Assembly (NCBI RefSeq): GCF_056746865.1
Contig: NZ_CM163382.1
DNA: 64,000 bases
Direction: 5' to 3' (one strand)
Positions within the stretch are counted from its first letter, which is position 1. Each line of letters starts with the position of its first letter. The position numbers were made by a program. Shown here one piece after another: positions 30,001 through 36,000 of the stretch.

Positions 30001-33000
30001 ATCAAGCGCGAAGTCGCTTATCGCCAGCAAATTGGATACCTCGAGAAAGTGAATAATGATTGGCTCGAATCATTGCCTGTACGTGATATGATGGAGTTTG
30101 GTTGGATCCCCAAAACTACAACTCGGGAAAGTAAATTCCAGCACTGCCTATCGTTTTTCGGAATAAATTCCGTCAATGATTTTTTTTATAAAATTCAGTC
30201 AGATGCTCCTTTGGTCGCTTTTCGTAAATCTCTTAATCTGGCAACCGAGCCTATGGCCGATTTGGTGTGGCTGACTAGGGCTGCACAACTTACCTCAAAC
30301 CAAAACTGTGCTGTATGGGATAAAGAGGGGCTGATAGCATTGTTGCCAGAACTGCGCAAAGCTACAAATGAACCCGACATGAGGATTTTTATCCCTTACA
30401 TTCGCGACCTTCTCGCCACTGCTGGAGTTTCTCTCGTTGTGTTGCCAACGCCAAAGGGATGTCGGGCAAGTGGTGCTACCTGCTTTTTTACACCAGATCG
30501 CGCAACCCTAGTCATGAGTTTCCGTTATCTGACCGATGACCATTTTTGGTTTACGCTGTTTCATGAGATTGGGCATCTCATCTTGCATGAAGCTGTCCGA
30601 GTTCGCGTAGAAGGTAAAGATAGTCTTTCGTCGGAAGAGGAAAAGGAAGCAGATAAATTTGCCGTTGATGTTCTTATCCCAGAAGAATACCGGCAGCAAC
30701 TTAGTCGCTATGGTGTCCGGCATTGGAAAGAGATCATCCGGTTAGCTAGGAAAATGGGGGTATCCAAAGGGATCGTACTGGGATATTTGCAGCATGAAGG
30801 TAATATACCTTTTTCTCACCTTAATCGGTTTAAAGTGAGATTCCGTAAAGAAGATATCGTCTGATATCAGCCGCCGAAATAGACATAACGGTCAGGTGAT
30901 TTCTGCCAGTTGCACAACGCATCTTCAATAACCTGCATTCTCAAGTAGGGTGCAGGAATAATTGCCGCAAGGTCAGCTAGTTTTTCATTCAATACGTCTA
31001 TTGTGTCACCAGCAGTCCGGCTATTGCTGAAAAGTAGCCGGCTTCCTTGAAGGGGCCCGGTTGCTCCATTCAGAAAAGCATGACCCGGCTCTACATCCAG
31101 AAGTCCCGTTTTCTTGAGCATAGTTAGGTAATCAAATTTTGCGGTTCGTCCAAATGAGATCACGGCATTTAGCCCTGAATACAATAGTTCGAATAAAGAT
31201 TCTGGTGAAGATGAAAAGCTCTTGGCCTCTGCAAACCTAGCCTCATGACTGTGTGTAGCACCAATGAATCCGATGTAAGAGCGAAAAACCGCAGGTATTG
31301 AACGACGAGAGTGATATTTCTTCGTTTCATATTTCCGATGGTTACCATATTGTCTTAGGCTACTGTTAGCTGTCAACTCATCAGAGACGCTGGCGAACCA
31401 TTGTTCAAAAGCAGCAAAGTCATCAGTTATCGTATCCCATGTCCACGTTTGTGTACCGAGTCCACTGTATATATCTCGACACAAAATCCAGCCGGTTTTG
31501 TTACTCTTGCCGAAATGTGTGGCAAGGAAAACCAGCCAGCAGGCTTCATCGTAATTGTTGTCACGAAGATAAAGGCAGGCAGCGCGGAGAGGATCAAAAA
31601 CATCAGAATTCGGCTCTTTTCGTAACGGAGTCATATAATCGGTCCGTAATGCAAGAGTTTCCACATAGCGTATACGACGTATACTGTCGATAATCTGACA
31701 GGCTAAAACATCAAAGCAGGCAGGAGAACTTAGGCCATTTAGGTTGTGTTCATTGCGGCTAAAATTTTGCAAATTACTAACCAGCTGACTGATTTGATTA
31801 TGTCTTTTCATTGTAGTCTTCCTTCAAAAATAAACCGATATTCCTGATTTTTCATTGCAGCCAACTCTTGGAAGGCTAGTCCTTTGTGGTTGGGTGTATG
31901 TGAACGTAACAAAAAGTGGATTTTTAATATACGCAATAAATCCTTCCAGTAGTCATTCAAGGAAGTAGTGTCAATATCAAATTCCTTATTCTCTCGAAGA
32001 GCTTTTTCTGCCTCAAGCAGGGGTAAGATATCATCTAAGGAATGCATTTCAGGCATCGATCCCATGACTGGTAGGGTGCTCATGAACCCCTCTTTCTGAA
32101 GAGCCTTCACTTTTTCTAAATCATTTTTATAGAGATGTAGGCTGGATACAAAGTGATGATAGTGACCCAATTCGCATCCTATCAAGCGGGCAACTAATTC
32201 CTGTAGCATCGTGAACGCAAATACATCATGAGGCAGCCCCATAAAGGCATCGTTAGAACGCATACAAACAAATAGATGCAGCTCTTCACATCTGACAATA
32301 AACTGCATAGATATTGTACAAGGAATATCTACGTATTCTCGCTGTTCAGTTTTTGAGGGCACCAAGTCTGAGGCATCGAAAAGCTGTATTACTGCACGTC
32401 TGGTAGGTTTTTTCTCCTGCAAAAGGTTGATAACATTTTTTAGCTGATTATATAAACCACGCATATTAAACAACCGTGGCCCGTAACCACCATGTATTTT
32501 CCCATCTGACTCAGCGGATTCAGCGTAACGTGGTATGAAGTGTTTTATAAACTCAAGATCGTTCTGAGCTGAGAGATACCACAGAAATTCACCTAAGCAA
32601 CTAATTAGTTTTCCTCGGGATTCTGTTCTACTTATTCTTCGGCGGGGGTCGGTAAGGACAAGATAGGCACCAAGAATCTCTAGAGTTGATCCTTTTGTAG
32701 GATCGTTACTGAGTCCATCCGCTAGGATAGCTTGATGAACATCGTTTATCAGATCGTCAACACACTCAGCCGTTACCAAAAGAGTCATTTTCTACCTTTT
32801 CCTGTATGGTAGTAACTAATCATTACCACCTGTATGGCATATAGTCAATATAGTATCAATATCAACATGGTTCACAGGGTAAGTAAGACTTGATCTTACC
32901 CAGCAATAGTGGACACGCGGCTAAGTGAGTAAACTCTCAGTCAGAGGTGACTCACATGACAAAAACAGTATCAACCAGTAAAAACCCCGTAAACAGCATT

Positions 33001-36000
33001 CGCCTGAATTTCTCAGTGAAGCCCTGAAACTTGCTGAACGCATCGGTGTTGCTGCCGCAGCCCGTGAACTCAGCCTGTATGAATCACAGCTCTATGCGTG
33101 GCGCAGCAAACTGCAGCAACAAATGAGTTCGTCAGAGCGTGAAAGTGAACTGGCCGCTGAAAATGCCTGCCTGAAGCGGCAACTGGCGGAGCAGGCAGAG
33201 GAACTGGCTATCCTCCAAAAGGCCGCGACATACTTTGCGAATCGTCTGAAATGAAGTATGTCTTTATTGAAAAACATCAGGCTGAGTTCAGCATCAAAGC
33301 AATGTGCCGCGTGCTCCGGGTGGCCCGCAGCGGCTGGTATACGTGGTGTCAGCGGCGGACAAGGATAAGCACGCGTCAGCAGTTCCGCCAACACTGCGAC
33401 AGCGTTGTCCTCGCGGCTTTTACCCGGTCAAAACAGCGTTACGGTGCCCCACGCCTGACGGATGAACTGCGTGCTCAGGGTTACCCCTTTAACGTAAAAA
33501 CCGTGGCGGCAAGCCTGCGCCGTCAGGGACTGAGGGCAAAGGCCTCCCGGAAGTTCAGCCCGGTCAGCTACCGCGCACACGGCCTGCCTGTGTCAGAAAA
33601 TCTGTTGGAGCAGGATTTTTACGCCAGTGGCCCGAACCAGAAGTGGGCAGGAGACATCACGTACTTACGTACAGATGAAGGCTGGCTGTATCTGGCAGTG
33701 GTCATTGACCTGTGGTCACGTGCCGTTATTGGCTGGTCAATGTCGCCACGCATGACGGCGCAACTGGCCTGCGATGCCCTGCAGATGGCGCTGTGGCGGC
33801 GTAAGAGGCCCCGGAACGTTATCGTTCACACGGACCGTGGAGGCCAGTACTGTTCAGCAGATTATCAGGCGCAACTGAAGCGGCATAATCTGCGTGGAAG
33901 TATGAGCGCAAAAGGTTGCTGCTACGATAATGCCTGCGTGGAAAGCTTCTTTCATTCGCTGAAAGTGGAATGTATCCATGGAGAACACTTTATCAGCCGG
34001 GAAATAATGCGGGCAACGGTGTTTAATTATATCGAATGTGATTACAATCGGTGGCGGCGGCACAGTTGGTGTGGCGGCCTCAGTCCGGAACAATTTGAAA
34101 ACAAGAACCTCGCTTAGGCCTGTGTCCATATTACGTGGGTAGGATCACATAACCTGAAATGGCACTAATGGCCAGAGCTTACTAATACATAATCCCTACA
34201 GGATGTAGCCACCAGTTTTGTTCATCCGGTATTCTGATTTGGTAACATGCTCCAGAAAGGAAGAAATATGTACTGCAATGAATTAAAAGAATTTGCGCAA
34301 GAGCAGGAACAAAAACTTATCAGTGCGCTTGCTGATACCAGAGAGCACCCGTCCCCCGATGGTGAAACAAGAAGCCGGGATAATTATCAACGGGATTACG
34401 CGCGTATTCTGTATTCATCATCATTTCGCAGGCTGCAGGGAAAGATGCAACTTTTTGAAATTGATCCTGAAAAATTCAACAGAAACAGATTAACGCACAG
34501 TCTTGAGGTTGCTCAGATCGCCCGAAGTATCGCGTCAGACCTCAAACTGATTAACCCGGTGGTGGTTGAACTGGCAGCGCTGGCGCATGACATCGGAAAT
34601 CCTCCTTTCGGTCATTCCGGTGAAAAACTGCTTAATGAACTGTCTGAAGAAATCGGCGGCTATGAAGGTAATGCACAGGCGCTACGTATCCTGAGAAAAC
34701 TGGAGAAGAAATTTTCATACTGCAACGGATTAAATCTGACTCACCGTAGTTTACTTTCGGTTGTTAAGTATCCCATCCCCCGCGCTGCAGCTACTGCCGG
34801 CAAGTTCATTTATGATGATGATTACTATTTTTACATTAACCTGCTTGCTGAAAATCAGCTCGATCTGAATCCCGGAGAGAAAACGATTGATGCGCAGATA
34901 ATGGATCTCGCGGATGAGATTGCCTACGCCGCGCATGACCTGGAAGATGCCCTTAGCAGGAACATGGTCACGATTGAAGATATTGAATATGAGTTTCAGA
35001 TTTCTGACGAATTCCGGGGAGCGAGGGAACAGTTCAGGGAAATCGTTACTCAGTCGAGAAACACCGCTTTTCAGGCTAACTTACTGAAAACCTCAGAAGA
35101 ATTTGCCATCATATTCCGCAAGGAGTTAACTTCAAATATTGTCAATCGCCTCGTTGCAGATATTTCTGTAGTAACGAACCTGAATGGTTTTCAGGAACTG
35201 GGGTTCGGGAAACTGAATGCGTTATCCGAAGGACTCAAAAAACTTCTCTTTAAAGTCATCATGCGAAAACGTAATATCCTCACCTATGAGTTCAGGGGAA
35301 ATAAAATAATCAGGGATTTATATGACTTTTACAATGAAGGAGAGAATTATAAATTTCTGCCTCCTGAACTTAAATTCACCTTACCCCAACCAGATTCCTG
35401 TATATTTGAAATCAGCAAAAAACGAGCAGTGGTTGACTATATTTCAGGTATGATGGATACATTTGCAGTCAAGGAATGGGAAACTCACTGTCTGAAGTAA
35501 CACTGCCGATTACCAGAGGCGCATATTTTCCCGTTATGGTTATTGCGCCTTTATTCCGTTTCGGTGACAGGTTATTTTAAATATTCTGGAAATGCGTTGA
35601 TGGGCAAGAACAATTACCCTGAAAATAAATACAGGAAATGGTTTTCCACAGCAATAACATATCTTATTACAGGTGGTTTGTGCTGGTATATGTTGTGGGC
35701 ATCCGCTATATCTCATTATACTGTTTTACAAAATACGGTACCTGAATGGACAACATATTTTTGCACCGGTATAATCACCGGATCTCTTTCTTTTATTTAT
35801 GCATTTTATATCCGCACCTTTAACAGAACATTAAAGTCTTTATTAAATGCATTCACGGGGGGATTTTGTCTTGGATTTATACTGAGTCCTGATGAATCCC
35901 CTAATGATTTTGATAAAAATCATTAGGGGATTCATCAGTGCTTGACCTTGTTTAAAAGCTGTAATATCGCAATTTACTAACTCAATATCTAAATCCATTG

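Follow-up and report, generated by a model that had tools for sequence, protein, structure and literature searches.

The window analyzed here, a stretch of 64,000 nucleotides from contig NZ_CM163382.1 (NCBI RefSeq assembly GCF_056746865.1), contains an IS3-type insertion sequence whose orfA reading frame is broken close to its start. The question raised by this locus is whether the missing base is a genuine deletion that silences the copy, or whether it is an error in the sequence, is bypassed during expression, or belongs to an element that is retained for some other use. Based on the analyses described below, we assign a probability of roughly 0.92 to a genuine inherited A6-to-A5 deletion in a structurally complete IS3-type element that is now a non-autonomous, fixed pseudogene. 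The features of this element and its flanks are collected in Table 1.

Table 1. Positions of the IS3-type element, its parts, and its flanking triplets in the window
Feature	Position	Strand	Evidence
Left flanking triplet ACT	32888..32890	.	Read from sequence
IS3-type insertion sequence, complete, 1257 bp, TG...CA ends	32891..34147	+	K-12 IS3A alignment
IRL, intact	32891..32930	+	Identical to K-12 IS3 from 4th base on
orfA remnant in ATG frame, 23 codons MTKTVSTSKNPVNSIRLNFSVKP plus TGA	32956..33027	+	Translation
A5 run, 1-nt deletion site (A6 in reference IS3 and IS3H)	32980..32984	+	Alignments
Remainder of orfA: HTH_Tnp_1 domain and C-terminal region	32985..33254	+	Translation at offset 2
Mosaic patch, orfA 3' half, IS3H type	33090..33250	+	Identity counts
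Programmed -1 frameshift motif A_AAG within CCUCCAAAAGGCCGC, unchanged	33218..33221	+	Identical to K-12 IS3
orfB, intact 288-codon ORF, DDE catalytic part of transposase	33251..34117	+	Pfam
IRR, intact	34108..34147	+	Identical to K-12 IS3
Right flanking triplet CAT, start of native upstream region of dGTPase gene	34148..34150	.	Uninterrupted sites

Canonical IS3 is 1258 bp, and the element in the window is one base shorter. When aligned with E. coli K-12 IS3A, which itself lacks the first 3 nt of the left end, the entire element is 96% identical with one 1-nt gap. Its size (about 1.26 kb), its imperfect inverted repeats (28 of 40 positions of IRL pair with the reverse complement of IRR), and its run from TGATC to GATCA are those of the IS3 group. 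The downstream orfB lies in the -1 frame, as in that group, and its 288-aa product matches Pfam rve (5e-28), the DDE domain, as well as rve_2 (5e-22) and HTH_21. In the IS3 group, programmed -1 frameshifting is signalled by A_AAG in the orfA/orfB overlap together with a pseudoknot 3' of it. At the sequence level, the motif is also present here, since CCTCCAAAAGGCCGC is the same in K-12 IS3 and in the IS3 frameshift region quoted in PMC4066793. Three substitutions relative to K-12 lie 3' of A_AAG (33236, 33242, and 33245), of which the one at 33236 is common to IS3H. Judged by sequence comparison, the element is a hybrid, with an orfA 3' half that is IS3H-like and an orfB region that is identical to that of K-12. 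A left-end search found one IS3 copy in the window, and thus no second copy within it that could complement this one in trans.

The sole gap in the alignment with K-12 IS3A falls at orfA codons 9 and 10, where a run of six A residues (AGT AAA AAA CCC CGT in K-12 IS3A) is reduced to five in the window, affecting codon 10. The first-pass annotation had reported a single-base deletion in orfA beyond the normal programmed frameshift, and this deletion is real, although two of the details given with it are not. The stop had been placed directly after MTKTVSTSKNP, but the shifted frame continues for 12 codons, so that translation from the ATG at 32956 yields a 23-aa peptide that is terminated by TGA at 33025-33027 and in which no Pfam domain was found. 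In addition, the +1 frame had been said to restore orfA, but the remaining sequence (PRKQHSPEFLSEALKL...) is read in the -1 frame of this ATG, which is the same as +2. When one A is restored, a 99-aa OrfA open reading frame is obtained with HTH_Tnp_1 at residues 12-78 (E = 8e-9), which places the lesion upstream of the entire domain. As it stands, the sequence homologous to the helix-turn-helix-encoding orfA of the IS3 group is present, but the gene is broken.

In the alignment check proposed with the first-pass annotation, the lesion is absent from the reference. Among 5,426 complete E. coli genomes, a 42-mer that spans the A6 run is found at 12,248 places in 3,499 genomes, and the 41-mer for A5 at 241 places in 236 genomes. 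Among the A5-bearing genomes, the median number of A5 copies is one and the maximum is two, with two A5 places in five genomes. The exact variant is restricted to one locus: an orfA with at least 99% identity to it is present in 220 records, about as many as the genomes with the left junction of this locus (224).

These data bear on the alternative, also offered at first pass, that the element is in truth intact and one A of the homopolymer was dropped in sequencing or assembly. Such an error is a reasonable concern in general: at four loci unrelated to this one, canonical IS3 copies show sporadic loss of one A from the A6 run, and in one of them, from strain OV2, the insertion sequence contains 7 gaps and is evidently from a noisy assembly. 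However, the 1257-bp element was matched at 100% over its full length in 30 of the 30 E. coli genome records among the matches listed, from varied hosts and sources, and the roughly 220 genomes that contain the variant always have A5. Systematic error is, moreover, less expected in a run of only five bases. No 100% match to the repaired (A-restored) orfA variant was found in the 5,426 complete E. coli genomes, and the 40 top matches listed for this query were all at 99.7%, that is, the A5 copy. From these results, we consider a sequencing or assembly error to be effectively excluded.

An intact progenitor of the exact orfA variant was found neither in complete E. coli genomes nor among all PLSDB plasmids, where the best full-length match to the repaired orfA is 97.8% identical (96.0% for IS3H). 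Strains SCU-484 and UC4224 contain descendants of the same insertion in which the 5' end of orfA bears different lesions, among them a change of ATG to AAG; this fits a copy that has long been dead. In the two RefSeq records that were inspected, PGAP labels the gene "IS3 family transposase; frameshifted; pseudo".

We considered whether the lesion is bypassed, either by ribosomes slipping -1 at U_AAA_AAC (32979-32985) or by polymerase slippage on the A run, which would restore OrfA as a K10N protein and give transposase by two successive -1 shifts. The frame change required is indeed -1, the site resembles a degenerate slippery heptamer, and the predicted fold of the downstream 90 nt is somewhat more stable than that of shuffled sequence (z = -2.3), but the hairpin nearest to the site is weak, and a variant that is confined to one locus has not spread. 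Appreciable slippage during transcription would need a run of more than five A residues. For ribosomal slippage, U_AA.A provides no X_XX.Z P-site context, and the A_AA.C tetramer is outside the ten motifs that are stimulated by the strong IS3 pseudoknot in E. coli (PMC4066793). In the same study, tetramers without a stimulator gave about 0.15% frameshifting in E. coli compared with a background of 0.11% (PMC4066793). Given these published rates and the weak local structure, recoding rescue is very unlikely. We regard as more improbable still the proposal that the A5 allele is not dead at all, with rare -1 slippage at this heptamer supplying K10N OrfA and the two successive frameshifts acting as an extra-tight throttle on transposition. 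If this were true, the double-frameshift throttle would let the element persist harmlessly beside a defence gene.

The preferred reading, an inherited inactivating deletion, makes simple predictions for expression of the element. Ribosomes that start at the orfA ATG would stop after 23 codons, leaving the helix-turn-helix DNA-binding domain untranslated and the A_AAG frameshift site unreached; neither OrfA nor the OrfAB transposase would then be made, and orfB would be deprived of its usual supply route. With the frame lost at codon 10 and the gene called a pseudogene by PGAP, the copy probably does not encode an OrfAB of its own, and we infer that it makes no OrfA or OrfAB protein and has no autonomous mobility. 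This agrees with the earlier proposal that the copy probably cannot make these proteins and would move only with help in trans, which is further supported by the position of the lesion upstream of HTH_Tnp_1 and by the failure to observe the variant with the A restored. The copy is fixed and travels with its genomic island. Its intact inverted repeats could in principle be acted on by transposase that a different IS3 copy in the cell supplies; the E. coli genome data contain no sign of past mobilization of the A5 hybrid in trans.

Some product could still come from the internal ATG at 33123, which opens a 43-aa C-terminal fragment of OrfA, or from the orfB ATG at 33251. A related possibility is that the copy has been retained for some benefit, either of its truncated products or of the element as such. 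In one form of this proposal, other IS3 copies might transpose less in the presence of the 43-aa fragment, of an OrfAB truncated at its N terminus, or of OrfB by itself; in another, a defence-type dGTPase gene that lies 120 bp downstream (PADLOC dGTPase model match, 2e-109) may receive transcription or insulation from the element. Consistent with some use, conservation is perfect in orfB and in both inverted repeats, the element is kept beside the dGTPase gene in about 280 genomes, and two lineages have different lesions that all cluster at the orfA 5' end. Conservation of orfB is, however, equally expected if the shared origin is recent or if other IS3 copies have acted as donors in gene conversion, no obvious Shine-Dalgarno sequence was seen ahead of the ATG at 33123, and strain EC2 has lost the element. 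On balance, retention for usefulness is improbable.

The flanks of the inherited dead copy contain a record of its history. IS3 insertions are flanked by a 3-bp direct duplication of the target, and none was found here, where ACT on the left faces CAT on the right. In strains a15 and KC-Dl-1, the right site is uninterrupted, with ...CTGGCAA followed directly by CATAACCTG, the left flank runs on into other DNA in SCU-152, and the two flanks are not adjacent in genomes without the insertion. Mismatched flanks from two separate loci point to a rearrangement after insertion as the probable cause of the missing duplication, rather than membership in a different family. A search for the empty site, with both flanks joined, had its sole match in EC2. 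This was rejected as the ancestral empty site because 16 nt native to the left flank are also missing, and both ends of the deletion are in TCAC; we read EC2 as a probable secondary deletion in which the IS3 element was lost. The A5 hybrid with its mismatched flanks has minor value as a marker: within a genomic island that is widespread in E. coli, it records the joining of two defence-related segments, one a thymidylate-synthase-like module and the other a dGTPase module. For annotators, the frameshift marks a true pseudogene rather than a fault of assembly, and this IS3 copy should be excluded from the count of active IS3 copies in the strain.

Among known elements, E. coli K-12 IS3 (insE/insF; IS3A, b0298-b0299) is collinear with the window copy across the whole element. 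The two are alike in their inverted repeats, orfA start, A_AAG frameshift region, and ATGA overlap of orfA and orfB, and they are identical at 900 of 900 positions over orfB and the right repeat (33251-34147). They differ in that the window copy has an A run one residue shorter than A6, is without the 3-bp target duplication, and is only 72% identical over the orfA 3' half (33090-33250; 116 of 161 positions). In this segment, it matches IS3H of Shigella sonnei pSS_046 (PGAP "IS3-like element IS3H family transposase") at 154 of 161 positions, and the orfA 3' half of IS3H is of the same type. IS3H aligns without gaps to the 322-nt repaired orfA query and has the run at full length, but the run and its context (AGC AAA AAA ACA CGT) differ from those of the window copy, its orfB region is identical at 861 of 900 positions with a 3-nt insertion in IS3H, and, unlike the window copy, it is annotated as an intact transposase. 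In comparison with the frameshifted insertion sequence pseudogenes annotated by NCBI PGAP, the copy in the window is ordinary and already marked by the automatic annotation in both inspected records; it is one instance of this class, with no difference of substance.

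Alignment of the IS3 copy in the window with IS3A of Escherichia coli K-12 MG1655 (insE1/insF1) contained a single gap over the whole element, located in a run of A residues in orfA. The run reads AGT AAA AAA CCC CGT in IS3A (six A residues, A6) versus AGT AAA AAC CCC GT in the window (five, A5), in agreement with the single-base deletion in orfA that a first-pass annotation had claimed. Read from its ATG at 32956, orfA encodes MTKTVSTSK and then 14 out-of-frame residues (NPVNSIRLNFSVKP) before a TGA at 33025-33027; putting one A back produces a clean 99-codon ORF. The annotation had placed the stop directly after MTKTVSTSKNP, 12 codons too early, and had named +1 as the restoring frame, which is in fact -1 (equivalent to +2). 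No second IS3 copy was found in the 64-kb window by a left-end search and alignment.

Coordinates of the IS3 copy, its neighbors, and related copies (window positions unless a comparison locus, L008 or L010, is named)
Feature	Position	Strand	Remarks
IS3-type insertion sequence	32891-34147	+	1257 bp, ends TGATC...GATCA
A5 run	32980-32984	+	one A fewer than IS3A; orfA codons 9-10
A_AAG programmed frameshift site	33218-33221	+	within CCTCCAAAAGGCCGC, unchanged vs K-12 IS3A
orfB	33251-34117	+	intact 288-codon ORF; rve, rve_2, HTH_21 domains
Flanking triplets	32888-32890, 34148-34150		ACT and CAT; no 3-bp target duplication
dGTPase gene	34268-35500	+	120 bp downstream of IS3 right end; PADLOC anti-phage dGTPase model, E = 2e-109
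Thymidylate-synthase-like gene	31808-32788	-	overlaps 314-aa hypothetical gene
314-aa hypothetical gene	30867-31811	-	
XRE-family gene	29782-30864		PADLOC PD-Lambda-2_B match, 9e-30
MazG-like gene	29049-29315		
Hybrid IS3 in SCU-484, UC4224	L008 2746-4000, L010 2742-4000		

All 30 complete E. coli chromosomes listed, from sources such as chicken, pig, cattle, human, gull, giant panda, and river water, match the element at 100% across its entire 1257 bp. A 41-mer centered on the run, designed so that A6 copies cannot seed a match, detected the A5 form at 241 places in 236 of 5,426 complete E. coli genomes (12,248 places in 3,499 of these genomes for the counterpart A6 42-mer), and the left junction of the window insertion was found in 224 of the complete genomes. 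When orfA with the A restored was used as a 322-nt query, there was no 100% match across the 5,426 genomes, and the best 40 matches listed were all at 99.7% and represented the A5 copy, so the deletion accompanies this orfA variant in every genome that carries it (220 records at ≥99%). Both NCBI PGAP records inspected label the gene "IS3 family transposase, frameshifted" and flag it as a pseudogene, and one of them, NZ_CP033635.1, is collinear with the window (99.9% over 47.8 kb). Because the 30 listed copies are identical, the variant is seen only with the deletion, and no repaired form was found, we reject the homopolymer sequencing error that had been offered as an alternative; the main interpretation, a real inactivating deletion, holds on the genome-wide A5 counts and the PGAP label. 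From these results, we conclude that this copy is a real, inherited IS3 pseudogene, ordinary and already annotated as such.

Four IS3 copies at unrelated loci, canonical in other respects, showed the same A6-to-A5 loss (comparison loci L012-L015, from p503025_105 and strains 90-3040, OV2, and ET201). The OV2 copy has seven alignment gaps across the IS, and its assembly looks noisy. The A run is prone either to repeated slippage or to repeated assembly error, and this recurrence, together with the noise in OV2, makes caution about homopolymer errors in general sensible.

In the repaired OrfA, Pfam HTH_Tnp_1 matches residues 12-78; the lesion therefore precedes the entire DNA-binding domain. A profile search of the 23-aa orfA product found no Pfam domain. 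Sekine and Ohtsubo reportedly established that a -1 frameshift from orfA into orfB yields the IS3 transposase. Ribosomes starting at the orfA ATG would terminate ∼190 nt short of the normal frameshift site, the context of which agrees with the IS3 frameshift window of a study in which -1 frameshifting is cited as having been shown for the IS3 family (PMC4066793). Both inverted repeats are intact, and positions 33251-34147 are identical to K-12 IS3 (900/900). We infer from the frame loss that the copy yields neither OrfA nor OrfAB and would not move autonomously; it retains the ends required by a transposase acting in trans, which supports the earlier proposal of an element immobile unless helped in trans.

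A -1 recoding event at U_AAA_AAC would restore the frame, since -1 is the change required and this site resembles a degenerate slippery heptamer, but we consider it highly improbable: when measured in E. coli, tetramers without a stimulator give ∼0.15% versus a background of 0.11%, and only ten tetramers respond to the strong IS3 pseudoknot, A_AA.C not being among them (PMC4066793). In addition, the closest downstream hairpin is weak by folding, and transposase production would need a second shift at A_AAG. A 43-aa C-terminal OrfA fragment could start at the internal ATG at 33123; no obvious ribosome-binding site was seen for it.

Among the complete E. coli genomes there is no sign of past mobilization of the window copy, as records of the variant (220) do not exceed genomes with the locus (224). 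Genomes bearing A5 have a median of one A5 copy, with two A5 places in five genomes. The listed records contain 1-8 IS3 places each; most host genomes have further IS3 elsewhere, and in strain LWY24, among the records listed, the window-type IS3 is the sole IS3.

The left flank (thymidylate-synthase-like), its last 16 nt included, runs into a type I restriction-modification locus/hsdS in SCU-152, and the right flank (dGTPase) lies directly after shlB, uninterrupted, in strains a15 and KC-Dl-1 (...CTGGCAA followed by CATAACCTG). The two flanks are not neighbors in these genomes without the insertion, and by this comparison the window IS3 appears to mark a rearrangement joint. Genomes with the right junction number 280, versus 224 with the left. 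SCU-484 and UC4224 have the same hybrid IS3 and right (dGTPase) junction, with IS1/fec (fecIRA) as the left flank. At the 5' end of orfA these two carry a set of lesions different from that of the window copy and clustered within ∼30 bp: the ATG has become AAG, an A is missing at 32961, T replaces A at 32970, and there is an A7CG run. The remaining element is ∼99% identical, and the lesions reflect either independent orfA decay or a patch converted from another copy. We propose that IS3 inserted upstream of the dGTPase gene long ago and that two or more exchanges of its left flank followed, either through rearrangements mediated by IS3 or through recombination among IS3 copies, with orfA subsequently decaying along different paths.

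In EC2, the only one of 368 genomes in which both flanks are contiguous, IS3 is absent along with 16 nt of native left flank (joint at 3184/3185 of comparison locus L005), and both breakpoints lie in TCAC. Because TCAC is present at both ends, a microhomology deletion fits better than an ancestral empty site, which we reject. The EC2 dGTPase gene is annotated as frameshifted.

Native DNA upstream of the window dGTPase gene is wholly replaced by IS3 past 120 bp, so expression of this gene may be affected. To the left of IS3, 29049-32788 is a possible nucleotide-metabolism and defense cluster; the thymidylate-synthase-like, 314-aa hypothetical, and MazG-like proteins had no PADLOC match. By collinearity with NZ_CP033635.1, window positions ∼1-48000 form an island that begins at a tyrosine integrase and contains sugar-utilization genes (alpha-galactosidase, GH32 hydrolase, carbohydrate porin), a phosphoethanolamine transferase, pap fimbrial remnants, a type I restriction-modification system with an AAA ATPase and a DEAD/DEAH helicase, and an ISCR2-floR-tet(A)-strAB-sul2 resistance module.

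The 3' half of orfA (33090-33250) is identical at 154/161 positions to IS3H, an IS3-like element of Shigella sonnei plasmid pSS_046, and at only 116/161 to K-12 IS3; from 33251 onward the values are 861/900 versus 900/900, placing the crossover in the conserved orfA/orfB overlap. Judged by these identities, the window IS3 is evidently a hybrid, IS3H-like in the 3' half of orfA and of the K-12 type from the start of orfB. It resembles IS3H in the first of these segments and differs from it in the second, whereas the reverse is true of its relationship to K-12 IS3.
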